DNA of 64,000 nt from Patescibacteria group bacterium (GTDB taxonomy: Bacteria; Patescibacteriota; Microgenomatia; UBA10105; UBA927). A model generated the notes under the pieces. That model was given only the letters and a program-made list of their open reading frames with translations, ran no database searches and had not been told where the DNA came from. The first letter of the stretch is position 1. Each line of letters begins with the position of its first letter. Location: contig JBBTWM010000033.1 in the NCBI GenBank assembly GCA_038062795.1, forward strand, positions 5,615 to 69,614, given 5' to 3'. The position numbers and the translations under genes are program-made. Positions 4,759 to 35,116 of this stretch are shown in pieces.

Positions 4759-5393
4759 AAACTTATACATGTATTTTATTTGATTGGGATGGATGTTTGG
4801 CAAAGTCATTGGATATTGCGCTTTATGCCTATAAGGTGTCGTTTCGAAAATATGATATTTCGTTAAGCGATAAGAAAATAACACACGAAGTATTCGGTGA
4901 CTGGCAAGCCCCTCAAAAACTAGGAATTCGTGACATAACACAATATTGGGAAGATTTTCATAAGATACTGAATAAGACATATTCTCATGTTCCGCTATAC
5001 GAGCATGTACAAGAGGTATTAACGGAATTGAAAAAAAGAAAGAAAAAGCTTGCTTTAGTTTCTTCGTCTCGGCGATCTACGCTCAACGCTCCGCTGACAT
5101 ATCATAAATTATATCCATATTTCGATGTCATTATGTCAGTGGACAACGTAAAAAAAGATAAACCGAATCCTGAGATTGTTTACAAAACTTTAAGAAAACT
5201 TCGTGCCGGTAAATCGGAAAGTTTGCTTGTAGGAGATTCCAAGAACGATCTCCTAGCTGCAAAAAGCGCCAGTGTAGATTCCGTTCTCTTTTATCCGAAG
5301 CACAATCAGTTATTTTATGATTTTGATATCCTAAAAACATACGATCCAACCTATATCATTAGCGATTTACGAGAACTTTTAACAACCGTATAG
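4755..5393 (+). CDS. HAD-IA family hydrolase/phosphatase
   Basis: All four HAD motifs are present: LFDWDG (DxDG), LVSSS, KKDKPNP and GDSKND. ATGA overlap with the upstream gene. Confidence 0.8.
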   Translation: MKTYTCILFDWDGCLAKSLDIALYAYKVSFRKYDISLSDKKITHEVFGDWQAPQKLGIRDITQYWEDFHKILNKTYSHVPLYEHVQEVLTELKKRKKKLALVSSSRRSTLNAPLTYHKLYPYFDVIMSVDNVKKDKPNPEIVYKTLRKLRAGKSESLLVGDSKNDLLAAKSASVDSVLFYPKHNQLFYDFDILKTYDPTYIISDLRELLTTV

Positions 5394-5396
5394 ATT

Positions 5397-12890: not shown

Positions 12891-14600
12891 ATGATTATCT
12901 GGTTGAAACGGCACAGGAAAGCCTTATTTATTTTTTCTCTCCTCCTTGTCCTTTTTGTTACGAACGCATTCCATGAGAAATACCCTGATGAGTTCGATAG
13001 CATCGTCGGCGGCAGATATATCACCGAGGGCAAACTTCCGTACAGAGATTGGTTTCAACATCATCAACCCGGAGCGTATGTCATGGCGGCGGGAGTGCTG
13101 TCGTTTGCAGGCCAGTCGTTTGTAAAATTCCGTATCGGCTGGGAAATCGCGTTATATGCGCTGCTTGTCGGTTCTTATCTGCTGCTTTCCCGTCGGCTTC
13201 CCAAGAGAAATTTGTCCTTCTATGTAGTGCTTTTGTTCGTCATTGGGCTTTCGGGCACGTATTTTTGGGGAAATATGCTGCTTGCGGACACGTTAGCCGG
13301 GTATTTTATCTTGCCTGCTTTTTCGCTCCTGTTCCTTAAAGATTATTATAAAGAGAAGTTTGAGGCGAAAGATCTCATGATCGTCGGCTGGTTTGCATTT
13401 CTTTCATGGTTTACCTCCATGACGTATATATTTATCGTTGCAGCCATATCGGCGTACGCGTTGTATCTTTTTATGGCGACAAATACAAGCAAAAAATTTA
13501 CCGCAAAATTATTTACCGGAGGTGCAATCCTCGCAGCACCTTATATTCTTTTTGCACTATATTTGCTTGTCACCGGAAGCATTCAGGATTATTACTGGGC
13601 AAACGTGGTCTATAACACCAATTATTATATATACAATTATCCGCACGCTCCGGGCACACCGATTAATCCTATTCGATATGCCGCCGTCATTATTGATACC
13701 TTTATCAATAATTACTTACCGGCATTGTGGGGTATCGCGGGGTTTCCGATCAGCAGCCCCGTGCAGGTAACGCTGGCATTTTCCAACGCCGTAGCAATCT
13801 CACTTGTGATGCTTCGTGGCCGCTGGCTCTTCTTGTTTCCTTTGCTTGCGACGCTTATTTTTTCCAACGCCAGAAGCAACCCGCAGTCTATCAGAGAAAC
13901 TGACTACCAGGCGTTCGTTTACATAATAACATCCATGTTTAACGGTCTGTTCTCTCTATGGGTCGTAAAAGAAATGCTGGATGAAGAAAAACTTACGTAT
14001 TCGAAAAAAGCAGCACTGTCCGTTTTATATATCACATTACTTCTTTACTGGATTGCTACGCCGATATATTTTGCTATGAAGATGGAGCAAAAGTTTTTCC
14101 CTAAGTACATGGGGACTGCACCGATAATCTATAACCGACCCCAAATTGCACAGTATGTGAACGCGTTGGTTTCACCTGAGGACTATGTGTTTATCGGCCC
14201 GTTTGATTTTGAGGAATTATTTTACCTCAACACCAAGCGCCAGCCAAGCCGGTATCACTGGTTTTTAAATCACGCCGCGACATCGAAGATAAAAGACGAG
14301 TTGATAGCCGATCTTACGAAGAACCGCCCGAAGGTCATCGTTTTTCAGCGGGGATTTGCCCCGTGGGGCGGGGATGCATCCACGTATAACTGGTGGATGA
14401 CGGATTTTCTTGACGCGAACTACTTCAGGTTGTTTAAACTCAATGAAACCCTGACGGACCGGCAGTACCGGTGGAAACTGGATAATACTATTAATTTTGA
14501 TATAGACGGTACGTTTAATTTCGACAAACAGCACCAGGAAGAAATTCTTGAAAAATTACTAACGCTCGGGTATATCGAAGAGTTACCTAAACAGAAATAG
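12891..14600 (+). CDS. polytopic membrane protein, uncharacterized DE-motif family (family A), putative GT-C
   Basis: N-terminal TM segments with a loop motif DEFDSIVGGRYITEGKLPYRDWFQHHQPG. A paralog at 60939 carries DECINYTAGYFILLGKSLYSQIFFNHQPT. The C-terminal half is soluble. Confidence 0.45.
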   Translation: MIIWLKRHRKALFIFSLLLVLFVTNAFHEKYPDEFDSIVGGRYITEGKLPYRDWFQHHQPGAYVMAAGVLSFAGQSFVKFRIGWEIALYALLVGSYLLLSRRLPKRNLSFYVVLLFVIGLSGTYFWGNMLLADTLAGYFILPAFSLLFLKDYYKEKFEAKDLMIVGWFAFLSWFTSMTYIFIVAAISAYALYLFMATNTSKKFTAKLFTGGAILAAPYILFALYLLVTGSIQDYYWANVVYNTNYYIYNYPHAPGTPINPIRYAAVIIDTFINNYLPALWGIAGFPISSPVQVTLAFSNAVAISLVMLRGRWLFLFPLLATLIFSNARSNPQSIRETDYQAFVYIITSMFNGLFSLWVVKEMLDEEKLTYSKKAALSVLYITLLLYWIATPIYFAMKMEQKFFPKYMGTAPIIYNRPQIAQYVNALVSPEDYVFIGPFDFEELFYLNTKRQPSRYHWFLNHAATSKIKDELIADLTKNRPKVIVFQRGFAPWGGDASTYNWWMTDFLDANYFRLFKLNETLTDRQYRWKLDNTINFDIDGTFNFDKQHQEEILEKLLTLGYIEELPKQK

Positions 14601-14628: not shown

Positions 14629-16299
14629 TTATTTAACGGATGCTGCGATAAATACTGCAGGTGCGTGGCGCCCGGAAATAGTATCAATATACCGGTACTG
14701 CTGCTGATTGTGCTCAAATTCCGGACGGGCAAGGATAAAGAGAGTACGCTCCGGCGTTGATACGATCAGTTGTTTGGGGTCGTATGAGGAGTTATAGAGA
14801 AATATATCATTGTTATCCCACTCAGCGCCGGTGAATAGATATTTTCCCCACCCTGACCGGGAACCGCCGCGTTGATAGATAGCAGGATCAACCTTGTTCC
14901 AATAAAGCATAAAAATATACGGGCGCCAGTAATACCCGGAGATAACAACGCGGTCATACAGAGATTCGTGGTTTCTGACGTAGGTAATCATCTGTTCGTA
15001 TCCATCCCCGAATGCCAGCGCATTCCGTGTCGGGTTGACCACAAAGTATGATTGATAGAATGCATAGAGGAAAAATATCAAAAGTAAACCAAACGATACA
15101 ATGCCGTACCATATGCGTTTGCGCGCCTCGATTGATGTCATGATCTCAATGGCTCCGAGTCCTGAACAAATAGAGAAAAACGGTGCTGCCAGCAGTGTAC
15201 GGAGCGCATTCGGCTGATTAGTGCTGAGTGCTCCGGGAAGAAACGCGGCAAGAAACCACATAACGAGCAGCCACTTACCCGGTGCTGCCATGGTGATAAG
15301 AAAAAATGCACCGACAAAAATTAACGGTATTTCAAACGGGTGCTGCAGCCCATAGGTTGAGGTTCCGCTGGAAAATACATGAAGCGGCGAAATATTTTTC
15401 CAGTAATTGTCCAAAGCGGTCATAACCAGGGCTGTTTTTTGGTTAAAGAATACCTTTCGTGTCATGTCGGGATGCTTGGCGTATATGCCGATAAATGTGT
15501 CTTTCCACTTGTAGTAATTCGGATCCCGGATGATACTTACAATGGACACGCGTTCCAGTCCACCCGGCGTGAACATCTGGCTGCCGATTGGTATCAAGGT
15601 TATGACAAAGAGAAAAATTGACAGTAGAACGGTCAATTTGTTTGCCATCAGCTGCTTTTTGTTGATCAGTAGGTACGCGAGTACCACGAATGGGATTACA
15701 AGCCGCACGGAATAGTAAAAATAGACAGAAATGCCCAGCAGCAGAGCGGCAAGCGGCAGAAATCGAATTTTCCGTAACGAAAGAAGCAGTACGTATGTGG
15801 CCAGGCTCAGGAAAAACAGCGCTCCGTTGGATTCAAATAATTGTCTTGAGAAATTGATATGCCACGGCGAAATAGCAAAGAAAAATGCAGAGGCCAATGC
15901 GTAGGCATCAGGGGCATGCATGCGGCGTTTGCCTTCGCTGACAGGATAATTACGGAATAATTCGTATATGAGAAGGTATACCAAAAGAATAGTGAGGGAT
16001 CCCAAAAAGGCAGATGTGAACCGTGCCCCCATAGCAGTAGTCCCGAACACTGCGACTGCGGGTATGGTGCTATAGACCATGCCGGGCAGTTTATAATCAT
16101 CAAACGATTTAAACAGCAGAGGAAAAGGCACCCCGTATTCATCTTTGCCGGTTTTTAAAATTGAATAGGCATTGTAAGTGATGGCGGTTTCGTCGTGAGA
16201 TAGAGATGGAGGAACGGTTGTGATCCGGTAAAATCGTAATACTGTTCCCAATGCAATAATGGCCAGGAGAAATAGATAGGTGAGATGTATCCGTTTCAT
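14629..16299 (-). CDS. GT39/PMT_2-like (ArnT/PMT-type) membrane glycosyltransferase
   Basis: LRFYRITTVPPSLSHDETAITYNAYSILKTGKDEYG. The DE loop-1 motif and overall topology fit a GT-C. Five paralogs are present in the window. Confidence 0.7.
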   Translation of the reverse strand: MKRIHLTYLFLLAIIALGTVLRFYRITTVPPSLSHDETAITYNAYSILKTGKDEYGVPFPLLFKSFDDYKLPGMVYSTIPAVAVFGTTAMGARFTSAFLGSLTILLVYLLIYELFRNYPVSEGKRRMHAPDAYALASAFFFAISPWHINFSRQLFESNGALFFLSLATYVLLLSLRKIRFLPLAALLLGISVYFYYSVRLVIPFVVLAYLLINKKQLMANKLTVLLSIFLFVITLIPIGSQMFTPGGLERVSIVSIIRDPNYYKWKDTFIGIYAKHPDMTRKVFFNQKTALVMTALDNYWKNISPLHVFSSGTSTYGLQHPFEIPLIFVGAFFLITMAAPGKWLLVMWFLAAFLPGALSTNQPNALRTLLAAPFFSICSGLGAIEIMTSIEARKRIWYGIVSFGLLLIFFLYAFYQSYFVVNPTRNALAFGDGYEQMITYVRNHESLYDRVVISGYYWRPYIFMLYWNKVDPAIYQRGGSRSGWGKYLFTGAEWDNNDIFLYNSSYDPKQLIVSTPERTLFILARPEFEHNQQQYRYIDTISGRHAPAVFIAASVK

Positions 16300-16302
16300 A
16301 GA

Positions 16303-17937
16303 TTATTTGTCTGTATCTACAACTACAAATTCCGTTGTTTCGTCCGGCAGTCTGATCGTTGAGATTATTTTTGGCTCAAGTCCCCTGGGTAGCTCTTCGG
16401 AGCGTGCTATGAGCAGCGTATTACGGCGGGCAAGATCCTGATTCCAGTCGATAGCCCTAAATGAAAATCTTCCGAAACCGGCAACGTCGGTAAATCCGTC
16501 GTTTGATATGGGATACCGTACCGCTTCTGCTTGGTAATCCCCGGGTGCATAAGCGCTATAGAAAAGCAGAAAGATGTATGGTGATTGTTGCGGGTAGGTC
16601 ATGATGACCTTTTTTGGTGTATGTTCCGGAGTAAAAAGTAGAGGAACTAATTTTTTGTATGCATATCCCCAGTTGACCGCTTCGTTTTTCGGAAAGTGCG
16701 TAAAGTACAGATCGAGATAATAACTTAAGGAAGCAAGGTAGCCCAGTATCAGTATTGCCGCGATGATCTTTTTGGCTTTTGCGCCGCTATTCGCGTAAAG
16801 CATCCTGATGCCTGCCGCTATGGTTATAGCAAGAGCAGGGACGACTGCGAGCATGCGGTTGCTGTGGGGTGCATCCTTGGTGATGGCCGCAGCAATCCCG
16901 CCAATAGCAATCCACCAGAGAATAAATTTTACTTCTTTTTTCCTGAACAAACCGATGAGGTAGGTTACCCCAAGGACAAGAAGCAAAGCGTCGACCGGAT
17001 GCAGGTTGCCGAAGCCTTGGATGTTATGTGCTTTATTTCCTCCTCCCTTGATAAAGAGAAAGTCCGGCCCGTACGATTTGAGATAGTTTTGGAATACGGT
17101 TGTTATCGTATAGGTTAGCCGGTTATGGACAAGACGAGCCGTGAGTGAATTGGGATTATCATGGGCGAGTCTGGGAAGTTCAATTTGATTATGCACAACT
17201 GTGGGGTCGCCGAAAATGCTGATGCCGCCGATTTTGGTGTGGTCGGCCGTAAATGTCACGGTAAGAATGATGAGTGTGATGAGCGCTCCCAAGCCAACGG
17301 CGGTCCACCACCTGGGGATTTTTGTAATATCATCGCGGTATATTCCGGCAAGACCTAATACCAGCAACGAAGTAAATACATGATTGCCATGATAGGTATA
17401 GTACGTCGCAGCAAACAAAACAGCAGAAAATATAAGATTGCGTAATGATTTTTTCTTCAGGGCGCTCAGAAAATATACGGATCCCATGATGGTAAAAAAG
17501 ACGGCAACAATTGCTTCCGACTCTACGCGGGAGATGTGGATGTGCCAGGGCATAAGGGCAAGCGAGAGCGCGCTAAGCAACGCGATAGTTTCTGAAGCAA
17601 ATACTATATGAGCCAGAAAATATATGGCGGCAACCGAAGCAACACCGGCAAGCGCGGAAGGAAGGCGAACCGCCAACTCCGAAAGCCCGAAAATTTTTAC
17701 GAATGGAATCGTCGTATAGATGTAGAGCGGCAATTTCCAGTCTCCGAACGATTCGAAAGACAGTGGAAGCAGTTTCCCGTATTCGTCGCGTCCCGTCGTC
17801 ATAAGGGAGTATGCCGTCACTCCGATAGACGCTTCGTCCCGGTTAACACCGGGCGGGACGTCGGTCAGACGATACAATCTGAGCATCGCGGCCACCGTTA
17901 CAATACCGATTAACAATAATTTGGTTTGCCTGCTCAT
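16303..17937 (-). CDS. GT39/PMT_2-like membrane glycosyltransferase (paralog)
   Basis: LRLYRLTDVPPGVNRDEASIGVTAYSLMTTGRDEYG. Only 3 nt separate it from the paralog at 14629. Confidence 0.7.
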   Translation of the reverse strand: MSRQTKLLLIGIVTVAAMLRLYRLTDVPPGVNRDEASIGVTAYSLMTTGRDEYGKLLPLSFESFGDWKLPLYIYTTIPFVKIFGLSELAVRLPSALAGVASVAAIYFLAHIVFASETIALLSALSLALMPWHIHISRVESEAIVAVFFTIMGSVYFLSALKKKSLRNLIFSAVLFAATYYTYHGNHVFTSLLVLGLAGIYRDDITKIPRWWTAVGLGALITLIILTVTFTADHTKIGGISIFGDPTVVHNQIELPRLAHDNPNSLTARLVHNRLTYTITTVFQNYLKSYGPDFLFIKGGGNKAHNIQGFGNLHPVDALLLVLGVTYLIGLFRKKEVKFILWWIAIGGIAAAITKDAPHSNRMLAVVPALAITIAAGIRMLYANSGAKAKKIIAAILILGYLASLSYYLDLYFTHFPKNEAVNWGYAYKKLVPLLFTPEHTPKKVIMTYPQQSPYIFLLFYSAYAPGDYQAEAVRYPISNDGFTDVAGFGRFSFRAIDWNQDLARRNTLLIARSEELPRGLEPKIISTIRLPDETTEFVVVDTDK

Positions 17938-20138
17938 ACGCGTTTACGGGTAACCATAACGAGACCGATAATTGTCCCGGCTATACTTATCATACTCAAT
18001 ATTGCGCCATATGTGGCACTTTTCGGTTTATAGGTCATCGTAACGGTGTGCTTGCCTGCGGGGACAACAACGCCGCGCATGGTCCAGTTGGTGCGGATAA
18101 TGGTGGCAGGATTACCATCGATGTGTGCCTGCCAACCCGGGTAATAGGTATCGGTAAGTATAAGTGATGCTGACCGAGTGCTTTCTGTCTGTATGATGAC
18201 GTGTTCCGGTTTATACGAAAGGATGGTGGCCGTTCCGTTGTTCATATACGCGCGGGGAGATGCATGTATGTTTTCATATACAGTCCAATCTTCAAACGCA
18301 TATACTTTTTTAAAAATAGCCGGAGGGTATGTCTGTTCGCTGCTGCCGTTTTCCGTGCGGTCTAAAATATAGCGCACGCTTAATGCATTGAGAATTTTTT
18401 GCTTATTGAGGCCAGAGAGCCCGCCGTCACCGAAGTTAGATGTAATCGCCGCATCCGAGCGAGTCGCATTGTCAAATTGTTTGAGGGGAGATCCATTCCG
18501 GTAACTATAGAGGAATTCTCCATACCATTTGGGATACAAGGGATCGTACCCTTCGGGGGAATACATGCCGTACTGAGTAGCGAAGTTTGCGGCAATATTG
18601 GCAGTGCCGTATCCCCAATACCGATCCGGCGCTTTTTTGGCAAGATAGGTGATTATCGGATGAGTCGGGAATACCAACGCTTTCGGAACAAACGGATTGA
18701 ACCGGTTAAAGAAGACGAACAGATCGAGCGTATGAATTATCAATAGCAGAATTATGGCGTGTGTTCGGAATTTCGGCAGTCTGATGGCAACCCAAAATAG
18801 CCCGAGCGTTGCTGCAGAAAGCATTCCTCCGTAGATAAGCGCGCGCACCGCGATCGGAGCGTGCTCTGAAAGGAACGGGGTGATCGGGAGTTTGGTTGCG
18901 AGAAATAAAATTCCGAATCCGGCACACACATCCAGTGTTCTACGGACGAGTTTTTTGACAGAGTGCTTATCGGTCATCCAATAATCCAGTCCCAGCCCGC
19001 ACGTTATGGCAAGGGAAAACGCAAAAAGAAAAGACATGAGTGTCGGGGAGCTGGATGTGATAAGGGGGATGGGAATTCGATACAGAATTTGGGTGAGGGG
19101 ATTTGACGTGATAAGAAAAAGTGTCGCGATAGTCGCAGTTATAAACCATTTGGTAGCATCATCTTTCCTCCGTATTGCAGAAAACGAGAAGAATAACGGG
19201 ATAAGTCCTATTGTGGTTACTTTTCCGACAAACGTGTCTGCCGGCCAATACGTGCGGGTTGCAGGATTTCCGAAGATGTTAGGGAAGGGGAGAGCGAAGA
19301 GCTGCCAGGGTTGGATAAGAATTTTTGTGAACAAGTTGTTCGGATCATGCGGGCTTCGCGCGGCGTTGGCGATAAGTTCAATACCAGGAATGAGTTGAAT
19401 TCCGGCGATTCCGACGCCAAGCAACGAGAAAATAAGTACGAGCTTTTTATGTTTTGATCGAAAAAGCGCATAGATAGATGTAAAGACAAACATGTACGAG
19501 TACACTTGCGGATGCCCGGCAAAAAGCGCTGCTGCGTTGCCAACTGTAATGAGCCAAAGCCATCGATTTTCTATCGCAAGGAGGATCAAGGGCAACCACA
19601 AAATTACCTGACCGACGGTGCTGTATTCAAGCCATACCGCCATAAAACCGGAAAATCCGTAGGAGAGCGCGGCAAGCGCACTTCCCTCCGGTCTCATGCC
19701 GAGCTTTCTTGCGTACCAATAGGTAAAAAGAGCAGCGAGAAGCGGTTGCAACACGATAAGAACGGTCCATGCATTCATTTGACTCATGAAGAGGTACAAC
19801 ACGCCGAGCGGATACATGGCGGCAGTTTGAAAATTAGCAAGTAACGGGGTGCCGGAAAAATTATATGGGTTCCAAAGCGGGAGTTTTCCTTGTTTTAACG
19901 ACTCGACGGCAAGCGTTTTCCATGGATACATTTGCCGGATCGTGTCCGGATATTGTGCCTTGTTCGGAATCCCTCCCGCGCCGTATCCTAAGTAGGACGA
20001 TGAACGCCAAGGCTGGAAGTCGCTGACAAGAATATCTCCGGGGAAAGGCACTTTTCCTAAGAATACCGTTTGGTAAAAAAACAGTGAAATAACAGCGGTA
20101 AGTATTACGATGATCCAGAGCCATTCTTTGCGTGCCAT
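17934..20138 (-). CDS. YfhO-family membrane protein (paralog 3)
   Basis: IRQMYPWK..LWNPYNFSGTP. The ORF track extends to 20219, but that start would overlap the upstream gene by ~80 nt. An internal ATG (MARKEWLW) near 20138 is more plausible. Confidence 0.6.
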   Translation of the reverse strand: MARKEWLWIIVILTAVISLFFYQTVFLGKVPFPGDILVSDFQPWRSSSYLGYGAGGIPNKAQYPDTIRQMYPWKTLAVESLKQGKLPLWNPYNFSGTPLLANFQTAAMYPLGVLYLFMSQMNAWTVLIVLQPLLAALFTYWYARKLGMRPEGSALAALSYGFSGFMAVWLEYSTVGQVILWLPLILLAIENRWLWLITVGNAAALFAGHPQVYSYMFVFTSIYALFRSKHKKLVLIFSLLGVGIAGIQLIPGIELIANAARSPHDPNNLFTKILIQPWQLFALPFPNIFGNPATRTYWPADTFVGKVTTIGLIPLFFSFSAIRRKDDATKWFITATIATLFLITSNPLTQILYRIPIPLITSSSPTLMSFLFAFSLAITCGLGLDYWMTDKHSVKKLVRRTLDVCAGFGILFLATKLPITPFLSEHAPIAVRALIYGGMLSAATLGLFWVAIRLPKFRTHAIILLLIIHTLDLFVFFNRFNPFVPKALVFPTHPIITYLAKKAPDRYWGYGTANIAANFATQYGMYSPEGYDPLYPKWYGEFLYSYRNGSPLKQFDNATRSDAAITSNFGDGGLSGLNKQKILNALSVRYILDRTENGSSEQTYPPAIFKKVYAFEDWTVYENIHASPRAYMNNGTATILSYKPEHVIIQTESTRSASLILTDTYYPGWQAHIDGNPATIIRTNWTMRGVVVPAGKHTVTMTYKPKSATYGAILSMISIAGTIIGLVMVTRKRV

Positions 20139-20139
20139 A

Positions 20140-21771
20140 TTATTTTTTCCGGCGATTTGGCGATAATAACAGTATTCCGATTCCGATGAGTGAGAGTGCC
20201 GTAATTGCTTCCGCAACACGCCGTACAGGTGACTCTCCCCACATTACCCGTATGGAATGAGTGCCTGAGGGAACCCGAAATGTAATAAGCCCCCGCCAGT
20301 TTTGATCCTGAAATTGAATCGGTATTTTTTGTCCGTCGCTTGTCACCCTCCATCCCGGGAAATATTGTGTGCGGTCAACCACATTTACATCCGTTTCGGC
20401 GGTGACGGTAAAGGTGTGTGTGGTTCCTTTCTTTTGCCCGTCGGATATGGTTCCGCGGCCCTCTATGACTTCAAATTGACTGACGGGATACGCGCCGGCA
20501 GGACCTGCTGACCAGATAACGTCGGTTTCGCCGAAGTAGGTCGTGTTGAGTGGATAATCCCAGAAATATTTTTCGTCGATTGTATCCATTCCGAGCGGAG
20601 GACGGAAGAAAACGATCACAGAAAGAATTGCGGCGGCGGCGATGATACCGGTTGTAAGGATTGTTGTCTTTTTTTTGACGAGTACCGCGCCTCCAACAAA
20701 GGCCAATGCAAATACTACGACATTGAGAAGTCTCCAGGGAAACTGAAACATCCGCAGTATAGGAATACCTGCCCAAAGGAATTTGGATACCGGCTGCATG
20801 AGGAAAAGGGCCCCAAGGGTGAGGAATAAGCCGAACGCGACTGCTTTTTTCTCCCTCTCATCGCGGATATATGTTCGCGTGAGTAGCACAATTGCGGTGA
20901 TAAACGCTATGACCTGCACCAGACCGAACGAAACCGTGATGCCGCCGGTCTGCATAGCTTCGCTATTGGTCAGATTCGGAAGCAGGAAGTTGAAAAAAGG
21001 CGCAAAGTGTGACGCATACATCTCTTTCATAAACAGATCACCGTACGTGTATTTGCGTTCAATAAGCGCCGGCAGCCAATAAAACGCAGAAAGCATGAGT
21101 CCTAATCCTAAACCTGCCCAAGCCACGAATAGCTTGCGGTTATCCGGGGCAAATACAACGGAATAAAGGACTGCTACTGTGAAGAAGACAAGGCTGATAG
21201 CGTTATGAGAGGTGATAAGAAGGGTTACGGCAAATCCGGTAAGCAGGATATTGTATCGGGTATTTTTTTCTTCAAACCCCCGCTGCAATCCAAAGAGTAC
21301 AAGCGGGAGAAAGGCGAGTGCGTATCCTTCTGCGATATCTCCCCGGACGACAAGATCGACTAAATGAAACGGTGCAAACTGGTAGAGCACGGTAGTGATG
21401 AACGCTTTACCCTCGTGTTTGAAGAACCGTAATGCAAACATATACATAAAAATACCTGAAAGCAGGAAACTCACGAGCATAGAGATTTTGAAGGAAAAAA
21501 CTAAGCCGCCACCTAATGCGATGACCAGCGAAGTAACCAGATACGGCACATGATAGATAAAATTAAATAACGGCATGCCGTATCCGTAGTTGAGTTCTCC
21601 TGCCCAGCGGGGAAGGATCTGACCTTCGGACAGAGCCTTATAGTAGGCGGCCATGCGGGCGTAGTGAACCGGGCTATCATGCGTGTGCGGAGCCAATGGG
21701 GTAGCAAATATGCTCAAAAACGGCAGGGCTGAAATTGCAATGACGAGAATATAATGCTTAAATGATTTCAT
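20140..21771 (-). CDS. polytopic membrane protein, HDG..H..PRW-motif family (family B), putative GT-C
   Basis: PHTHDSPVHYARMAAYYKALSEGQILPRWAGELNYGYGMPLF. Paralogs lie at 31035 and 35117. The track ORF begins with GTG at 21819. I prefer the ATG (MKSFKHY) at 21771, which leaves a 48-bp AT-rich divergent promoter gap. Confidence 0.5.
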   Translation of the reverse strand: MKSFKHYILVIAISALPFLSIFATPLAPHTHDSPVHYARMAAYYKALSEGQILPRWAGELNYGYGMPLFNFIYHVPYLVTSLVIALGGGLVFSFKISMLVSFLLSGIFMYMFALRFFKHEGKAFITTVLYQFAPFHLVDLVVRGDIAEGYALAFLPLVLFGLQRGFEEKNTRYNILLTGFAVTLLITSHNAISLVFFTVAVLYSVVFAPDNRKLFVAWAGLGLGLMLSAFYWLPALIERKYTYGDLFMKEMYASHFAPFFNFLLPNLTNSEAMQTGGITVSFGLVQVIAFITAIVLLTRTYIRDEREKKAVAFGLFLTLGALFLMQPVSKFLWAGIPILRMFQFPWRLLNVVVFALAFVGGAVLVKKKTTILTTGIIAAAAILSVIVFFRPPLGMDTIDEKYFWDYPLNTTYFGETDVIWSAGPAGAYPVSQFEVIEGRGTISDGQKKGTTHTFTVTAETDVNVVDRTQYFPGWRVTSDGQKIPIQFQDQNWRGLITFRVPSGTHSIRVMWGESPVRRVAEAITALSLIGIGILLLSPNRRKK

Positions 21772-21819
21772 GAGTAAGGTGGGCCGTGAGCTTATTATAA
21801 CAAAGAATTCTAAAGTCAC
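21772..21819. promoter_or_regulatory. divergent promoter region between minus-strand block and plus-strand genes
   Basis: An AT-rich 48-bp spacer (GTTATAATAAG contains a TATAAT-like box) between the 5' ends of the 20140(-) and 21820(+) genes. It exists only if the minus gene starts at the ATG at 21771. Confidence 0.3.
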
Positions 21820-27910: not shown

Positions 27911-29539
27911 ATGAAACATTTGATCCTGGTGGGAATTCTGTTTGTTGCCGCTTTTTTCCGTTTCTATAATCTCTCCCAGGTGCCGCCGAGCCCGTCCCTT
28001 GACGAAGTTTCTATCGGCTACAATGCGTATTCAATTTTAACAACAGGTAAAGATGAATACGGGAGCGTACTCCCCATGCTGCTTCGTGCGTACGACGATT
28101 TCCGGCCGGCACTGTATGTATACCTCACGATACCGTTTGTATGGGTACTGGGACTCACTGTGGTCGCGGTGCGGTTACCTTCCGTTCTTTTATCGCTCAT
28201 TACCGTTTACGTAACATATTTAATCGGGCGGATGGTAGGGAAAAAATATCTGTCTTTTGAACGCCTTGGGGAAATCGCGGCCGTAATTCTAGCCGTATCG
28301 CCATGGCATATCTATATATCAAGACTGGGACATGAGGCAAATATCGGTTTAACGCTTACGACTCTCGGCATATTTTTTTTCCTGCGTGCAGTATTTTCCG
28401 GAAAGAAATCGTCATGGATACTTGCAGGTATTGCGTTTGGGTTGTCTTTGCATGGGTATCAGAGCGAGAAGGTGGTGATTCCGCTTCTCGTGCTGTTCGG
28501 GTCATATCTTTTTTGGAAAGAAATCAGGAAAGCAAAACGGCACGCGCTGATTGCAATAGTTGTGGGATTTGCAATCGCATTGCCGGCTATCGCGGCTACG
28601 GTTTCGCCGCAGGGAATGGTTCGCTTCCGCGCAACGAGCGCATTTTCTACCGATTCTCCCCGGGCGGTTTCCGCGGTCCAATCTTATATAGCATCAAAGG
28701 AGAAAGGGGATATAATCGGCCGGATCATATATAGCAAAGCGGTGACGAACGCCTCGATATTTATAGAGAACTATGCGTCTCATTTTTCTCCGGTTTGGCT
28801 TTTCTCCGGCAGCAATCGGGAGGCGCACAAAGTGCCTGGTATGGGGCTTTTATATCTATGGGAAGCACCATTTTTGCTCCTCGGCCTTTGGGCGCTAGGC
28901 AAGTCCCGGATACCCAAGCACCTTGCTGCTTTTCTTATCGCTGGTCTTCTTGTCGCGCCGATACCGGGAGCGATTACCACGCAGGCACCCCATGCTATGC
29001 GTGCTTATACGGAAATTCCGATAATGCAGCTTATAGAGGCGTTGGGTGCGTGGGTACTTATAAGTAAACTGAAAAAAAAGCAGTTGCAAATATTTGCCCT
29101 TATATTGGGCATGCTGATATCAGCCGGGGTAGTAAAATATTGGCAGGGATACTTTGTCCGATTTCCTGCGGAGCAGTCGGATAGTTTCCAATATGCGATC
29201 CGAGGAGCCGTGCAATACGGGTTAGATAACGCAAATCGTTATACGGCAATCCAATTTTCTAACCAGGGGAGCTTGTACCAGTCCTACATGTTTTTCCTCT
29301 ATTACAGCAAATTTGATCCGGCGGCCTATCATGCCCTTGGCGGAACCGGATCCGGCGGATTTGAAGAAGCGCATTATATTGGAAAGTATGCGTTCGGCAT
29401 CCTGCCACAGCAAGCCGAAAAAATTATTCCCGGAACGCTTTATTTCTATGATGCAAAAAACGTTCCGCAAGGCGCGCGCACATTGGAAACGTTTTCGAAT
29501 CTCGACGGAAAGCCGGCAATCACTGCCACAACATTATGA
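27911..29539 (+). CDS. GT39/PMT_2-like membrane glycosyltransferase (paralog)
   Basis: FRFYNLSQVPPSPSLDEVSIGYNAYSILTTGKDEYG. Confidence 0.7.
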   Translation: MKHLILVGILFVAAFFRFYNLSQVPPSPSLDEVSIGYNAYSILTTGKDEYGSVLPMLLRAYDDFRPALYVYLTIPFVWVLGLTVVAVRLPSVLLSLITVYVTYLIGRMVGKKYLSFERLGEIAAVILAVSPWHIYISRLGHEANIGLTLTTLGIFFFLRAVFSGKKSSWILAGIAFGLSLHGYQSEKVVIPLLVLFGSYLFWKEIRKAKRHALIAIVVGFAIALPAIAATVSPQGMVRFRATSAFSTDSPRAVSAVQSYIASKEKGDIIGRIIYSKAVTNASIFIENYASHFSPVWLFSGSNREAHKVPGMGLLYLWEAPFLLLGLWALGKSRIPKHLAAFLIAGLLVAPIPGAITTQAPHAMRAYTEIPIMQLIEALGAWVLISKLKKKQLQIFALILGMLISAGVVKYWQGYFVRFPAEQSDSFQYAIRGAVQYGLDNANRYTAIQFSNQGSLYQSYMFFLYYSKFDPAAYHALGGTGSGGFEEAHYIGKYAFGILPQQAEKIIPGTLYFYDAKNVPQGARTLETFSNLDGKPAITATTL

Positions 29540-31038
29540 AGTACGTACTTATTACCTTCGCAACCACGTTGGTGCTATTAGGGATGATTATCCGCGTGGT
29601 AGAAGTGGCCAACGGTAATTATGTTTTTGGATTTGATCAGGGACTTGATTTCATGGCTGCCCGTTCTATTGCAGTTGATCATAAACTCACCCTTATCGGA
29701 GCAGAAGCTGGGGCGGGATTCGCCGGATTGCCTGGCGTTTTTCACGGACCAGGGTACAGATATATTTTGGCCGTCCTTCTTTTTCTTTCCCACGGTAATC
29801 CATACGGGGCGATCGTGGGACTTGCTGTAATAAGTATTATCAGTTTATGGATGTTATATCGAATGGGCATAAGCATATTCGGACCGGTAGTAGCTGGAGT
29901 CATATTGGTGCTTGCTGCAGTTTCACCCCCTCTTACAGCACAAGCCCGTATGATATGGGCACCGAATTATTCGGCCGTTGTCGCTTTGCCGTTTCTTTAC
30001 GCAATTTGGTTATCCCGTAAAAAAACTGTTGCCGGCGCATTTCTGACTGCATTTTTTTCCGCGTTGTTGTATCACTTCGAATTGCCTATGGCTGTTCCCG
30101 CGATGCTCATGACTGTTCTCTATTTCGCATTTGTGTTGAAGTTTCGTGACATAAAGCTTTGGGCCGCTGTGTTTGCCGGTTTTTTCATAGGATTACTTCC
30201 CATGCTGTTATTTGAATCCCGGCATGGTTGGGGATTTGTGAAGGGCATCCTCACGTATGGCGTAAGGCTACGTGAGACATCGGTGACGGCACCGTTTTTT
30301 CCGCTTAAGGAATTGGTAGGCGACGGCAACGCAATTGTGAACACTATACGGGAATCATTTCTTTTTCCCGTGCCCTGGGTGCGACGCATGTTTCCATGGG
30401 TGCTGCTCGGAGGGACTCTTTGGTATGCAAAGCTAGAAAAAAAGAAAGAAATACAAACGTTTATATTCGGATTGTTATTACTTGTAGTTTCCCACCTTTT
30501 GGTATTTTATCCATATCGTGGACCTGTGTACGCCCATTACCTGACATTGTTATACTTTGTGTACCCGATCCTGGCCGCGTATTTGGCAGTTCGTGCATTA
30601 TCAGGGAAGGTAACCCGATGGATAGTGTATGCAGCTGCAATTATGCTAATAATCGGCGTACTGAAGCAAATCCCCAAAACGATAACGTCAGATTATCACG
30701 ATTACGGCGGCACTGCGAAAATCCGGGGCAAGACGGAAGCGCTTGACATCATCTATCAAGATGCGGCAGGAAAACCATTCGGACTTATGGTATTTACGCC
30801 TCCCGTTGTGCCATACGCGTACGAGTATCTTGCGAAGTGGTATGGAAAAAATACGTACGGCTATGTTCCTTCGTTTGAAAGGGGGCCAATATTTTACCTT
30901 CTGATCGAGCCGGATCCTGAGAAGCCATGGAGTTATAATGGATGGTTAGAGACGGTTATCAAGGAGGGGACAGTAATTCGTGCCTGGAATTTGCCGAGCG
31001 GATTTATTATTCAAAAAAGAGCGGAGCGTATCGAATGA
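29536..31038 (+). CDS. polytopic membrane protein, DQG-motif family (family C) paralog
   Basis: Shared blocks with 21820 (FDQGLD, GPGYRYILAV). ATGA overlap with the upstream gene. Confidence 0.45.
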   Translation: MKYVLITFATTLVLLGMIIRVVEVANGNYVFGFDQGLDFMAARSIAVDHKLTLIGAEAGAGFAGLPGVFHGPGYRYILAVLLFLSHGNPYGAIVGLAVISIISLWMLYRMGISIFGPVVAGVILVLAAVSPPLTAQARMIWAPNYSAVVALPFLYAIWLSRKKTVAGAFLTAFFSALLYHFELPMAVPAMLMTVLYFAFVLKFRDIKLWAAVFAGFFIGLLPMLLFESRHGWGFVKGILTYGVRLRETSVTAPFFPLKELVGDGNAIVNTIRESFLFPVPWVRRMFPWVLLGGTLWYAKLEKKKEIQTFIFGLLLLVVSHLLVFYPYRGPVYAHYLTLLYFVYPILAAYLAVRALSGKVTRWIVYAAAIMLIIGVLKQIPKTITSDYHDYGGTAKIRGKTEALDIIYQDAAGKPFGLMVFTPPVVPYAYEYLAKWYGKNTYGYVPSFERGPIFYLLIEPDPEKPWSYNGWLETVIKEGTVIRAWNLPSGFIIQKRAERIE

Positions 31039-32693
31039 AAAAATTCTTTATGAAGTGGGGCATTTGGACTGGACTCGTCGCCCTGTCCCTCCTGCCATTA
31101 TGGGATTTGATGCATCCTGGATTGCCGATAACCCATGATGGTCAGGATCATGTGGCCCGTATCGCAAACTTTTATCAATCATTATCCGAAGGGCATGTAG
31201 TTCCCAGATGGGCGGCAAATCTCAATTGGGGATATGGACATCCGATTCTCATGTTTTTGTATCCTTTGCCCTCATACGTCGCGTCGGCATTTCATTTTGT
31301 CGGATTTTCACTCATTGATAGCACCAAGCTTGTATTTGCTTTCGGATTCATCGCCAGCATGCTTGCGATGTATCTTTGGATAACCAGTGCGTGGGGAGTG
31401 GCCGCGGGTATTACCGCTTCCGTACTGTATGCATTTGCGCCGTACCGGTTTGTCGATCTATATGTGCGGGGGGCTATAGGGGAGCATATGGCATTTGTCT
31501 TCCCGCCGCTTATTTGTTACGGACTTCTGCTTCTGGCAAAAGAAAAGAATCATATTTCGGCGGTGGCCCTGACCGTTATTTCTTTCGGAACTGCGCTGCT
31601 TATTCTGTCCCATAACGCGCTGAGTCTCATATTTCTGCCGCTTATCGGATTATACGCGTTATATCTTGCCGCACAGGAGACGAAGACTCCGATACGGTTT
31701 CTTCTCATGAGTATAGCCGGAATACTGTTTGGTTTTCTTCTGTCTGCGTTTTACTGGGTTCCGGGTTATTTTGAAGGCAAATACACGCTTCGGGATATCG
31801 TAACGAAAGGAGAATTTACCGGCCGGTTTGTTCCGTGGTTTTCATTTCTCTATTCACCCTGGAGTTATGGCGGAGGCAATGAACTATCCAAGTGGTTGGG
31901 AGCAGGACAGATATTGGCATTGGGTCTGAGTTTCTTTGCACTGGAAAAAAATACGAAACACCGGCGTTTCATTATCGTTTGCATGCTGCTTTTGTTTTTC
32001 TCGCTCTTTGCCATGACCGCCAATTCTGCTCCCGTCTGGAACGCGGTAACCTTGCTTCAGAAATTTCAATTTCCCTGGAGACTTATGTCCGTGACCGTAT
32101 TTTTGATCGCAGGGATCGGGGCATTTGTTGTATACATAGCTCCGGAAAAAAGCAGGCGGTGGACCGCCCTTATTTTGGTCATCATATCGATATTTGGGAC
32201 GATACCGATGTGGCGAGCCAAGGAGTATAAAGTATTTCCGCAGTCGTATTTTACCGGCATATATAACAGTACTACCGATACGGGAGAAAGCAGTCCTATT
32301 TGGTCTATCCGGTTTATGGAAAAGCGGCCCGAAGCGCTTGCGTATATGGTGCCGCTCGCAGGCACGATCAACGTGGGTGAGCGGTCGACAACGCTGAAAG
32401 TTTACCGCGTGAATGTGAAAGAGCCCGCTAGATTTGTAGAAAGCACGCTGTATTTTCCGGGGTGGCAGGTGTTTATTAATGGAAGCCCTCTTGCCATAGA
32501 AAAGCTTATATTTCAGGACCCTACGTACCGGGGACTCATGACGTTTGATCTAACCCCGGGCGATTACGACATCAGGTTTGAGTTTGGAGAAACGAAACTC
32601 CGAAGGATTTCAAATTACCTGAGTCTCGGTGCGCTGGCATTATTCGTCGTCAGTATTGGTACAATACGTTTGCTATGGCGAAAAAAAGAATAA
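31035..32693 (+). CDS. polytopic membrane protein, family B paralog
   Basis: GLPITHDGQDHVARIANFYQSLSEGHVVPRWAANLNWGYGHPIL. The ATG at 31035 overlaps the upstream stop as ATGA. Confidence 0.5.
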   Translation: MKKFFMKWGIWTGLVALSLLPLWDLMHPGLPITHDGQDHVARIANFYQSLSEGHVVPRWAANLNWGYGHPILMFLYPLPSYVASAFHFVGFSLIDSTKLVFAFGFIASMLAMYLWITSAWGVAAGITASVLYAFAPYRFVDLYVRGAIGEHMAFVFPPLICYGLLLLAKEKNHISAVALTVISFGTALLILSHNALSLIFLPLIGLYALYLAAQETKTPIRFLLMSIAGILFGFLLSAFYWVPGYFEGKYTLRDIVTKGEFTGRFVPWFSFLYSPWSYGGGNELSKWLGAGQILALGLSFFALEKNTKHRRFIIVCMLLLFFSLFAMTANSAPVWNAVTLLQKFQFPWRLMSVTVFLIAGIGAFVVYIAPEKSRRWTALILVIISIFGTIPMWRAKEYKVFPQSYFTGIYNSTTDTGESSPIWSIRFMEKRPEALAYMVPLAGTINVGERSTTLKVYRVNVKEPARFVESTLYFPGWQVFINGSPLAIEKLIFQDPTYRGLMTFDLTPGDYDIRFEFGETKLRRISNYLSLGALALFVVSIGTIRLLWRKKE

Positions 32694-33448
32694 CACTCTC
32701 GGTAGCTCTGGCTGTATATAATGAAGCCTCCAATTTGGAGCGTTGTCTTAGATCTGTCGGGAATTTGGCAGACGAGATGATTGTCGTGGACGGCGGATCA
32801 AGTGATGCTACCGTCGATATAGCAAAAAGGTTGGCAGCCAAAGTGTATCACACGGATAATCCCGCCATGTTCCATATCAATAAACAAAAAGCGTTAGATA
32901 AATCCAGCGGCGAGTGGATTTTGCAGCTGGATGCAGATGAAGTAGTGAGCGCGTCCTTAAAGGAAGAAATTCGGGATGTTATCGTATCTGGCCTCACACC
33001 CAACGGGTATTTCATATCCCGCCATAATTATTTTTTGGGCGATTGGCTCCGAAAGGGAGGTCAGTATCCGGATTACGTCATACGGCTTTTTAGAAACGGG
33101 TTTGGGGAGTTTCCTCAGCAAAGTGTGCATGAACAAATAAAGATAGACGGCCCGGTTGGGCACCTCAACCACGCGTTGGAGCACTACTCCTATACATCTA
33201 TCGCACAATATTGGGATAAATCTTCTGCATATATACGCTTGACCGCGGATGAATTATCAAAACGCAAAGATAGCCGATCGGTAGCTACGTTATTTTCGTA
33301 TCTGATTGCCAAGCCGGTTGGTACGTTTCTGTCTCTTTATCTCCGCCACAAAGGATTCGTTGATGGGTGGCGTGGATTCCTATTTGCGTTTTTTTCCGCG
33401 ATGCATTTTCCGAAAGCATATATTCTAAGTATTACCCAAGCTTCATGA
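32675..33448 (+). CDS. family 2 glycosyltransferase
   Basis: ITLSVALAVYNEASNL..VVDGGSSDAT, and the C-terminal WLRKGGQYPDYVIRLF motif shared with the GT2s at 1374 and 3171. Confidence 0.75.
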   Translation: MAKKRITLSVALAVYNEASNLERCLRSVGNLADEMIVVDGGSSDATVDIAKRLAAKVYHTDNPAMFHINKQKALDKSSGEWILQLDADEVVSASLKEEIRDVIVSGLTPNGYFISRHNYFLGDWLRKGGQYPDYVIRLFRNGFGEFPQQSVHEQIKIDGPVGHLNHALEHYSYTSIAQYWDKSSAYIRLTADELSKRKDSRSVATLFSYLIAKPVGTFLSLYLRHKGFVDGWRGFLFAFFSAMHFPKAYILSITQAS

Positions 33449-33975: not shown

Positions 33976-35114
33976 AACACATACCTACGCTATTTATCGG
34001 TATTGCCATAGTGCTGGGAATATATTCCTACGGATTTATAGACCCTCATTTGTCATTTTCGTCACATCCGTTCTATCTCTTTATTCAGAATGCGCTTGTC
34101 CATCTGGTGTACCGTCAATCCGTGACAGCGGCAGCACTGTATGTGTGCATCATTGTGGGTTTATTTGCTGCATACGGCATGATTATGCAATCGGCAAAAA
34201 CTGAAAAGATGAAATATTTTCCGCGATGGATGATATGGGGTATCGGGATACTGCTGGTTTCTTACCCTGCGTTTTCCTATGATATATATAACTACATCGC
34301 AACAGCTAAGGTCACATTCCAATATCGGGAGAATCCGTATGTGATGATGCCGATAGAGATTCCAAACGAGCCGATGCTTTCCTTTACCCGGGCTGCGAAC
34401 AAGGTCGCTCTTTACGGCCCGGCGTGGATAGTTTTGACGTCATTTCCGTATATTGTCGGGGCGGGAAACATGCTCGCGACTATAGTTTCGTTCAAAACGT
34501 TTACCGCGCTATTTTACACTGCGGTGACGTACCTCATTTACCGGAAAACGAAGCGATGGGACCAGGTGATGTTTTTTGCGCTCAATCCGCTGATACTTAT
34601 CGAAGTATTGGTCAGCGGGCATAACGATATTGTCATGATGGCGCTGGGTCTTGCGGGTCTCTTACTTTGGAATCGGCAGGGTATGCAATATAAAGCGGCG
34701 GGTATTATCCTGTTTATCTCTTCTGTCTTGATAAAAGGCGCGACGATTGCGTTAGTTCCGCTTTTCTTTTTTCCGAGGTGGAAATGGGAGAAAAAAATGC
34801 TGGTTGCCGGAGTCCTCATGTTCGGTGTATTTCTTCTCTCTCCTGTGCGGGAAGAAATGTACCCCTGGTATGCGGTGTGGTGGCTTAGTTGTATAGCTTT
34901 TGTTCCGATTCGGAAGCACTCGTTTATTCACTGGTTTTCATTTTGGCTGAGTTTCGGACTTATGTTGCGGTACGTGCCATGGATTGCCACCCGTGAGTAC
35001 GGTGGCATAACTCCCATAATCCGCGTTATTGCGACACTCGTGCCTGTGTTGTTTTATCTGCTTTATCGGTTTCGCAAAAATGTAAAACATCTCCGGGCCC
35101 CTTGGAAAAAGTAA
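33972..35114 (+). CDS. integral membrane protein (possibly DUF2029/GT87-like)
   Basis: Start at MKHIPTLFIGIAIV. About 10 TM segments with motifs ALNPLILIEVLVSGHNDIV and a PRWKWEKK loop. Confidence 0.35.
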   Translation: MKHIPTLFIGIAIVLGIYSYGFIDPHLSFSSHPFYLFIQNALVHLVYRQSVTAAALYVCIIVGLFAAYGMIMQSAKTEKMKYFPRWMIWGIGILLVSYPAFSYDIYNYIATAKVTFQYRENPYVMMPIEIPNEPMLSFTRAANKVALYGPAWIVLTSFPYIVGAGNMLATIVSFKTFTALFYTAVTYLIYRKTKRWDQVMFFALNPLILIEVLVSGHNDIVMMALGLAGLLLWNRQGMQYKAAGIILFISSVLIKGATIALVPLFFFPRWKWEKKMLVAGVLMFGVFLLSPVREEMYPWYAVWWLSCIAFVPIRKHSFIHWFSFWLSFGLMLRYVPWIATREYGGITPIIRVIATLVPVLFYLLYRFRKNVKHLRAPWKK

Positions 35115-35116
35115 CT

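Follow-up and report, generated by a model that had tools for sequence, protein, structure and literature searches.

Transfer of sugars to acceptors by glycosyltransferases of the GT-C fold has been described within a three-component scheme comprising a GT-A lipid-sugar synthase, a flippase and a GT-C enzyme (PMC8035078; PMC11127046). YfhO is the GT-C member of the CsbB/GtcA/YfhO system, which attaches GlcNAc to teichoic acids in Bacillus, Listeria and Staphylococcus and follows a lipid-phosphate-sugar donor logic (PMC8035078), and the founder enzyme of family GT136, ORF12 of Citrobacter youngae O1, transfers ribofuranosyl residues in a three-component system, its partners being a lipid-sugar synthase and a MATE flippase (PMC11127046). 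Hallmarks of the fold include 11 common transmembrane (TM) helices, two juxtamembrane helices between TM1 and TM2, a TM3 that is proline-kinked into two shorter helices, and a TM7 that reaches out of the membrane into a long loop, in which a short helix precedes TM8 (AftD paper). The Pfam family PF10131 ('PTPS_related') is listed in the GT-C clan CL0111 with its function described as unknown (PMC7801869). Here we describe three genes, paralogs A, B and C (Table 1), in a 64,000-nucleotide stretch of DNA from a Patescibacteria group bacterium of the Microgenomatia (contig JBBTWM010000033.1, positions 5,615 to 69,614; hereafter the window). They encode members of a membrane-protein family which an initial annotation of the sequence had labelled family B, a label unrelated to the paralog letters. 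We consider it likely that A, B and C are paralogous glycosyltransferases of the GT-C_A type belonging to PF10131, which transfer a sugar from polyprenyl phosphate to an extracytoplasmic acceptor.

Paralog A aligns over its full length with B (BLASTP E=1e-85, 33% identity, 551 columns) and with C (E=1e-59, 31% identity, 527 columns), and this similarity, which is far above chance, indicates that the three are real paralogs. The motifs T-H-D-[GS]-x2-H-x2-R, PRWA..LN.G.G.P.F.F.Y and Y[FY]PGW..DG are identical or nearly identical across all three proteins. A family-B hidden Markov model (HMM) was built from 392 relatives, with C and its orthologues included among the building sequences. Applied to the open reading frames (ORFs) of the window, it matched strongly only A, B and C (E 1e-225 to 1e-138; 3.6e-138 for C, itself represented in the building set), weakly only two of the three YfhO paralogs (E ~1e-14), and detected no fourth copy in the 64 kb. 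The initial annotation had recognised one membrane-protein family in three copies and had quoted N-terminal and C-terminal motifs for it; the motifs are real, and the three-copy reading is confirmed by end-to-end alignment, common motifs and the specificity of the HMM together. The full ORFs that enclose the three genes span 20140-21819(-), 30942-32693(+) and 35102-36667(+).

In a Pfam scan, A (61.5 bits) and B (34.6 bits) exceeded the PF10131 gathering cut-off of 26.4, in line with the earlier guess of a DUF-type family sometimes labelled PTPS-related, whereas C gave no match to this model at E<=1. Paralog C is instead counted as a member by transitivity, because its sequence is a full-length homologue of A (1e-59) and of the family-B HMM. 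The matches cover model positions 7-301 (A) and 4-317 (B) of 621, corresponding approximately to TM2 to TM10/11. TM1, the first extracytoplasmic loop with the motif around D32, and the C-terminal beta-sandwich lie outside this match, and the second half of the model has no counterpart in A or B in the Pfam scan. Among other families, YfhO (PF09586; cut-off 28.5) was approached by B (26.5 bits) and by the C-terminal domain of C (17.1 bits) but gave no match to A; a weak PF11847 match is seen here and in several orthologues; and no PMT or PMT_2 Pfam match was found in A, B or C. The Pfam search thus returned a known family of the GT-C clan and no confident match to a known family other than glycosyltransferases.

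NCBI names A and B '6-pyruvoyl-tetrahydropterin synthase-related protein' and C a hypothetical protein, and no NCBIfam model matches any of the three. The Pfam scan detected neither the PTPS domain PF01242 nor a soluble domain beyond the beta-sandwich in A, B or C at E<=1, and the whole chain of A is accounted for by TM helices and the beta-sandwich in an AlphaFold2 model. As the pterin-synthase domain is undetected, the name 'PTPS_related' is a misnomer for these proteins. A further suggestion of the initial annotation, that they form a novel enzyme family, fails because the family is catalogued, very large (~20,000 clusters at 50% identity) and already annotated, two of the three proteins being named after it by NCBI. 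A, B and C therefore do not found an enzyme family of their own but add to one that is widespread, catalogued and biochemically uncharacterised. Among 1.84 billion cluster representatives, a profile search retrieved 19,954 proteins with E<=1e-3 (5,750 with E<=1e-30). Almost all of the 120 closest homologues bear the PF10131 tag and are patescibacterial.

Structural models were inferred with AlphaFold2 from an alignment of 81 sequences (set A2), which was also used for paralog C. The model of A had a mean pLDDT of 91.4 and a pTM of 0.91, and that of C 84.3 and 0.89. In Foldseek searches against the PDB, the top 26 matches of A and the top 22 of C were all GT-C enzymes. For A, these comprised AftD (6W98), which was the best match (E 3e-5, TMq 0.44), together with yeast and human STT3, PglB, AglB, ArnT, EmbA/B/C, AftA and Pmt1/2/4. 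For C, STT3 ranked first, and AftD had the highest TMq (0.48) and the lowest root-mean-square deviation (5.9 Å over 403 columns; E 9e-4). All matches at E<=0.001, 11 for A and 5 for C, are GT-C enzymes. Sequence searches of the PDB, with a single sequence or with an 81-sequence profile, yielded no meaningful match, so it is fold comparison that ties the solved structures to family B. The description of the family as GT-C-like is thus upheld both by the clan assignment of PF10131 and by the models of A and C, which significantly match GT-C enzymes only; a lack of GT-C similarity was seen in neither.

Model secondary structure and the positive-inside rule together give 12 TM helices, an 11-helix core and a C-terminal anchor, in agreement with the more than 10 noted initially, and the C-terminal beta-rich domain noted with them is formed in A by eight strands (433-511) that precede TM helix 515-536. 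Across the 392 sequences, the density of Lys and Arg is 0.33 in the seven predicted cytoplasmic segments, each of which is net positive, against 0.063 in the outer loops, and the C-terminal tail carries a mean of 3.2 such residues. Because of this contrast between segments, the topology is N-in and C-in with the beta-sandwich outside. The hallmarks of the GT-C TM core listed above all appear in the secondary structure of the model of A. The first loop contains juxtamembrane helices JM1 (33-48) and JM2 (74-85), TM3 is split at P134 into helices 120-131 and 134-143, and TM7 consists of helices 211-227 and 229-241, with three short helices in the loop behind it (242-283). After TM11, the model shows a linker of ~40 residues and the eight-strand beta-sandwich, a candidate acceptor-binding module, in place of an alpha-helical domain.

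Conservation across the 392 sequences is concentrated in a small set of near-invariant positions (~90% or more): D32, R39, R55, G65, P67, K95, Y130, P134, R143, E148, H189, P234, E238, S329, W333, Q343, R347 and P472-G473-W474. The polar residues that are near-universal are all on the outer side. D32, which directly follows TM1, is present in 384 of 385 sequences and, with R39 (95%) and R55 (97%), makes up the near-universal positions of the N-terminal motif. In the remainder of the first loop, W56 reaches 90%, and G65 and P67 at least 95%. P134 (at least 95%), R143 (99%) and E148 (93%) mark the kink of TM3 and the loop beyond it, with a helix break at 132-133 in the model of A; H189 is conserved in 390 of 392 sequences, Q343 in 95%, R347 in 98%, and P472, G473 and W474 in 96-100%. 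A putative active-site signature of family B is D-x3-[HQ]-x2-R ... K95 ... R143 ... H189 ... Q-F-P-W-R, which the present models of Pfam and NCBIfam do not cover.

AftD has an essential Asp directly behind TM1 (D41; AftD paper), and the catalytic Asp of the GT136 founder (D31) occupies the same position (PMC11127046). Profile alignment (hhalign) with the PMT_2 paralogs of the window places D32 on the invariant Asp of their 'DE' motif, K95 on their invariant R91, and P134..R143 on their 'PWH..SR' segment. We propose D32 as the catalytic Asp, and K95 may be a ligand of the donor phosphate. As judged from the alignment, the strictly conserved outer-face constellation of Asp, Arg, Lys and His appears active-site-like rather than scaffold-like.

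As a feature of the family, a metal site formed by the 'HD..H' histidines finds no support, and a universal site of this kind can be ruled out because H36 is lacking in 26% and H31 in 22% of members (H29, H31 and H36 are conserved in 50%, 78% and 74% of the relatives). H31 and H36 do tend to occur together, with 241 sequences carrying both and 41 neither, although the associated p of 5e-7 comes from a naive Fisher test that ignores phylogeny, and the A-type clade has all of these residues; H31 also tracks E148 and H255 in the same test, with the same qualification. A metal site confined to one clade is possible.

Within the window, YfhO is the closest profile relative of family B. Alignment of the family-B profile with the three YfhO paralogs gave a probability of 95% (E 2.6e-8) over the TM core, and the C-terminal beta-sandwich (Y-x-P-G-W..DG..G.H) and terminal helix align directly with all three YfhO C-termini, two of which are also matched by the family-B HMM. 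The two families thus have a homologous C-terminal beta-sandwich and TM anchor, and their genes are adjacent in most related loci. They differ in that family B is ~200 residues shorter (516-552 versus 734-774 aa), has a different sequence in the first extracytoplasmic loop, and scores below the PF09586 cut-off. Given the profile match over the TM core and the homologous C-terminal domain, family B looks like a shorter sister family of YfhO and not a member of it, and by analogy with the CsbB/GtcA/YfhO system the same lipid-phosphate-sugar donor logic would be expected. One of the YfhO paralogs (5397-7721(+)) reads P-F-P-S-R-Y-L-V at residues ~37-44, where the other two read P-F-P-G-D-I-L-V and P-V-P-S-D-T-L-V, and so does not have that first-loop Asp; a second Asp (P-D-x-I-x-Q..P-W) is invariant in all three, and either Asp may be the catalytic one.

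Similarity to the PMT_2/ArnT type (PF13231) extends over 363 columns from the N-terminus (five aligned window paralogs, probability 81%, E 1.2e-5). The Asp of 'DE', R91 and 'PWH..SR' all have counterparts in family B, but family B has Gly or Ser in place of the Glu and a different C-terminal domain. The GT-C domain of AftD (6W98) has in common with family B the 11-TM core, JM1/JM2, a proline-kinked TM3 and an Asp directly behind TM1, which is essential in AftD (K39/D41). AftD, at ~1,400 residues, additionally carries an alpha-helical periplasmic domain, five extra TM helices, a bound acyl carrier protein and three carbohydrate-binding modules, and sequence identity is ~15%. The GT136 founder resembles family B in its 11 TM helices, helical post-TM1 loop and C-terminal beta-rich carbohydrate-binding module, with D31 after TM1 and His, Arg and Tyr around the donor phosphate, whereas its donor synthase is of UbiA type and not a GT2 (PMC11127046). 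Despite the similar architecture and residue spacing, membership of GT136, with which family B was compared by published description, was set aside because the authors report an EpsG-type CDD assignment for ORF12 and not PF10131 (PMC11127046). PF10131 itself remains the closest catalogued family, as A and B pass its threshold and nearly all close homologues are tagged with it.

We infer the donor, the acceptor and the roles of individual residues, alongside the homology, fold, topology, conservation and synteny observed here, as follows. At the cytoplasmic face, a DPM1/ArnC-like GT2 of the cluster would load a sugar onto polyprenyl phosphate, and the lipid-linked sugar would then be flipped to the outer face. 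There, at the outer membrane boundary, the donor phosphate would be bound by K95, R143 and R347, perhaps with R39 and R55, and Asp32 would activate the acceptor hydroxyl, so that the sugar is passed to an extracytoplasmic acceptor held in part by the beta-sandwich. The presence of DPM1/ArnC-like GT2 neighbours supports a donor of the lipid-phosphate-linked type, and the composition of the cluster matches the published three-component scheme. The paralogs probably differ in donor or acceptor specificity: they diverge most in the loop after TM7, where only the A type typically has T-Y-G-D at 242-245, and in other GT-C enzymes this loop becomes ordered upon substrate binding (AftD paper). Together with their YfhO and PMT_2 neighbours, A, B and C may constitute a multi-enzyme extracytoplasmic glycosylation line conserved in Microgenomates. 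With low confidence, we suggest a cell-surface glycan as the acceptor, which is favoured because of the domain resembling a carbohydrate-binding module, AftD as the best structural match, and the kinship with YfhO. A further and tentative possibility is that family B represents a distinct minimal GT-C subfamily, predicted from the models to consist of an 11-TM core, the beta-sandwich shared with YfhO and a C-terminal anchor, which with the YfhO and PMT_2 line does not just decorate a lineage-specific surface glycan but builds it wholly outside the membrane from lipid-phosphate monosaccharides. Arabinan assembly in mycobacteria provides a comparison for glycan building outside the membrane.

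Several observations weigh against assigning A, B and C as GT-C glycosyltransferases of PF10131 acting in such a cluster. The PF10131 match is confined to the first half of the 621-position model and does not include C, and the literature searched yielded no function for any member of the family; the matches naming PF10131 were a TMTC homology paper and two Clostridium acetobutylicum expression tables listing CA_C2581, none of which assigns a function. A soluble alpha-helical domain on the periplasmic side, described as 'always present' among solved GT-C structures (AftD paper), is absent from the model of A, and the multi-TM protein encoded at 38453-39712, the positional candidate for the flippase step, matches no flippase family in Pfam or NCBIfam. 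That the proteins are not enzymes at all, but scaffolds, lipid-sugar flippases, other transporters or true pterin-pathway proteins, is nevertheless very improbable. The database name points to the pterin pathway, yet no PF01242 or other soluble domain was found in the Pfam scan (E<=1); weak matches to MFS-type transporters do occur further down the Foldseek list of A (probability <=0.28), but their TM-scores (0.10-0.16) are well below those of the significant GT-C matches (0.38-0.48), and the strictly conserved outer-face cluster of Asp, Arg, Lys and His would be unexpected in such proteins. We also think it improbable that the enzymes act like oligosaccharyltransferases or ligases, transferring an oligosaccharide en bloc from polyprenyl-diphosphate onto protein or glycan. 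STT3, PglB and AglB are among the best structural matches of A (E 1e-4 to 8e-4, TMq 0.38-0.47) and STT3 is the top match of C, but the W[WY]DxG motif occurs in 0 of 392 family members and a conserved DxD is missing, which makes an en bloc mechanism of this type unlikely. The model of A also has no large C-terminal periplasmic alpha/beta domain, the potential metal-binding histidines are unconserved, and the linkage is to a monophosphate-type (DPM1/ArnC-like) GT2 and not to an initiating phosphoglycosyltransferase.

A serious alternative, which we regard as possible without favouring it, retains the same fold and chemistry but directs the sugar to protein, by O-glycosylation of Ser/Thr-rich extracytoplasmic regions such as those of pilins, S-layer proteins or lipoproteins. 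Protein glycosylation of this kind is known from eukaryotic and actinobacterial PMTs and from the streptococcal YfhO-like PgfM1/PgfM2. In favour, D32 lines up with the first residue of the PMT 'DE' motif and the cluster contains six PMT_2 genes; against, the second residue of that motif is Gly or Ser in family B, and the acceptor-binding MIR and TPR domains are absent. In the neighbouring YfhO, the domain homologous to the C-terminal domain of family B is nearest to the NCBIfam models PgfM2 and PgfM1 (1e-7 and 1e-5, scores far below their cut-offs), whereas the beta-sandwich of family B resembles the glycan-binding modules of AftD, Emb and GT136, and AftD, the best structural match, has a glycan acceptor. 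Among the GT2 proteins of the cluster, that at 37737-38450 has the PgfS model among its nearest, and three cytoplasmic paralogs resemble the protein glycosyltransferases GmaR and SunS; a published study also reports that Ser/Thr-rich disordered regions of streptococcal membrane proteins are glycosylated. Taken together, the evidence decides neither for nor against a protein acceptor.

To evaluate the context of family B in other genomes, we collected 73 related loci in a scan of species-representative genomes, called their ORFs and labelled these with the window proteins. The informatively titled loci belong to Levybacteria, Woesebacteria, Shapirobacteria and Candidatus Gottesmanbacteria, the last giving the best match (76% identity), and a few are labelled Parcubacteria or Pacearchaeota. 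The window thus most likely derives from a Microgenomates bacterium close to Gottesmanbacteria. In 65 of the 83 cases that could be assessed, the gene after an A-type copy is YfhO on the same strand, most of the loci have the order family B, YfhO, PMT_2 and sometimes a second PMT_2, and 2-4 copies of family B occur within 10 kb either side in 58 of the 73. A GT2 comes next after 35 of the copies other than the A type and is DPM1-like in 19 of these; in total, a DPM1-like GT2 directly follows a family-B gene 20 times (once after an A-type gene). A longer arrangement of two family-B genes, a GT2, a MOP transporter and another GT2 was seen in 25 loci, the transporter being orthologous to the Polysacc_synt_3 protein encoded at 34-1377 in the window. 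The neighbourhood is the same around a 57%-identical orthologue of A on a 311-kb contig, according to independent gene calls and Pfam tags, and the GT-C array at 5397-36667 is largely syntenic in other Microgenomates genomes. Many loci (L004, L008, L011, L013 and others) are titled 'uncultured Gammaproteobacteria bacterium' and one (L063) Pacearchaeota; these titles look like placeholder or mis-binned taxonomy and are not to be taken as evidence of spread beyond the Candidate Phyla Radiation (CPR). Among the database proteins found in the profile search, some have multiple family-B stretches, namely P0128 (3,329 aa, six), P0141 (1,670 aa, four), P0244 (1,337 aa, three) and P0126/P0129 (~1,100 aa, two), which may be true fusions of several GT-C units or tandem paralogs merged by gene calling.

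These results support renaming the 'PTPS-related' proteins as GT-C glycosyltransferases and extend the family to paralog C, a hypothetical protein at NCBI. Beyond the catalogued family, our analysis adds a corrected functional reading of its name, a proposal for active-site residues, and the synteny of family B, YfhO and PMT_2 across Microgenomates; D32, K95, R143, H189 and R347 are direct targets for the first biochemistry on PF10131. A minimal GT-C subfamily, if true and proven biochemically, would found a new CAZy family. The findings on family B do not overturn current understanding. CPR bacteria live attached to other cells, and to our knowledge their envelopes are almost unstudied; the literature searched offered nothing specific on CPR glycosylation clusters. 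With at least 14 GT-C genes in 64 kb and a core of family B, YfhO and PMT_2 in 73 loci of Gottesman-, Levy-, Woese- and Shapirobacteria, these organisms seem to devote a major and conserved effort to glycosylating their surface from lipid-linked sugars.

Table 1 Coordinates of the three paralogs, their conserved features and selected neighbouring genes in the window. Residue numbers refer to paralog A.
Feature	Position	Strand	Description
Paralog A	20140-21771	-	543 aa; ATG at 21771; identical letter for letter to NCBI MEK7533148.1
Paralog B	31035-32693	+	552 aa; ATG at 31035; identical letter for letter to NCBI MEK7533155.1
Paralog C	35117-36667	+	516 aa; ATG at 35117; identical letter for letter to NCBI MEK7533159.1
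H-T-H-D-S-P-V-H-Y-A-R, residues 29-39	21655-21687	-	Start of extracytoplasmic loop 1 and juxtamembrane helix 1
P-R-W-A-G-E-L-N-Y-G-Y-G-M-P, residues 54-67	21571-21612	-	Extracytoplasmic loop 1, between juxtamembrane helices 1 and 2
K95	21487-21489	-	Outer end of TM2; Lys in 96-98% in all three paralog types
P-F-H-L-V-D-L-V-V-R-G-D-I-A-E, residues 134-148	21328-21372	-	TM3 proline kink and short extracytoplasmic loop 2
S188-H189-N190	21202-21210	-	Extracytoplasmic loop 3, outside by topology
Q343-F-P-W-R347	20731-20745	-	Outer end of TM10, outside by topology
Extracytoplasmic beta-sandwich with Y-F-P-G-W, residues 433-511	20239-20475	-	Eight strands in model
C-terminal anchor TM helix, residues 515-536	20164-20229	-	From model; cytoplasmic tail N-R-R-K-K
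YfhO-family GT-C gene	17934-20138	-	PF09586, 61.8 bits; downstream of A, 1-nt gap
Two PMT_2-type GT-C genes	16303-17937 and 14629-16299	-	Pfam PMT_2/PMT matches; complete the minus-strand operon
DPM1/ArnC/GtrB-like GT2	37737-38450	+	Candidate polyprenyl-phosphate-sugar donor synthase

In the window, the genes are tightly packed or overlapping in an operon-like manner. Paralog A is the first gene of a minus-strand operon with the order A-YfhO-PMT_2-PMT_2 and lies only 48 bp away from a divergently oriented PMT_2 gene, the first of a long plus-strand array. The start of B overlaps the upstream unassigned multi-TM gene (29536-31038) by 4 nt and its end overlaps a GT2 gene (32675-33448) by 19 nt, while C, which overlaps a GT4 gene, is separated by 2 nt from the GT87-like gene before it. 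The GT2 encoded at 37737-38450 has the dolichol-phosphate mannose synthase of P. furiosus as its best PDB sequence match (5mlz, 7e-17), followed by ArnC and GtrB, and its nearest NCBIfam models, all below their cut-offs, are AglJ, Dol-P hexose transferase, ArnC, PgfS and PpgS.

The 419-aa multi-TM protein encoded at 38453-39712(+) lies between this DPM1-like GT2 and another GT2, at the position held in related loci by a MOP/Polysacc_synt_3 transporter. It was considered as a Wzx flippase and rejected, having no Pfam or NCBIfam match and no similarity to the Polysacc_synt_3 protein of the window; it is possibly a non-canonical lipid-sugar flippase, for which it is a candidate by position.

Between 5397 and 36667, the window encodes three YfhO, six PMT_2, three PF10131 and two GT87-like proteins, so that at least 14 GT-C proteins are assignable to families, and such genes are extraordinarily dense here. 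Three multi-TM proteins associated with this array are unassigned (12891-14600, 29536-31038 and 38453-39712). There are three GT2 paralogs in the window (32675-33448(+), 1374-2279 and 3159-3941); for the first, the best solved relative is GmaR, the flagellin O-GlcNAc transferase of Listeria (9e-18), followed by the peptide S-glycosyltransferase SunS, which hints at cytoplasmic glycosylation of proteins or peptides alongside the GT-C system.

Two further large membrane proteins are encoded downstream. The 1,173-aa multi-TM protein at 53426-56947(+) has no Pfam match and was not detected by the family-B HMM; a T-G-H-D-A-G-Y-P segment soon after its first hydrophobic helix resembles the T-H-D-G motif of family B, and it may represent a further, strongly diverged GT-C enzyme whose extracytoplasmic domain is large. 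The polytopic protein of ~1,000 aa at 57902-60898(+) carries a GDSL/SGNH hydrolase domain at residues 827-982 (71 bits), and this fusion of a membrane domain with SGNH is possibly a glycan O-acetyl-transferase or esterase. Bro-N domains are typical of phage and mobile elements, and a protein with such a domain (41 bits) is encoded within the glycosylation cluster at 3931-4758(+), where GC content shows a local dip to 0.427 (4001-6000).

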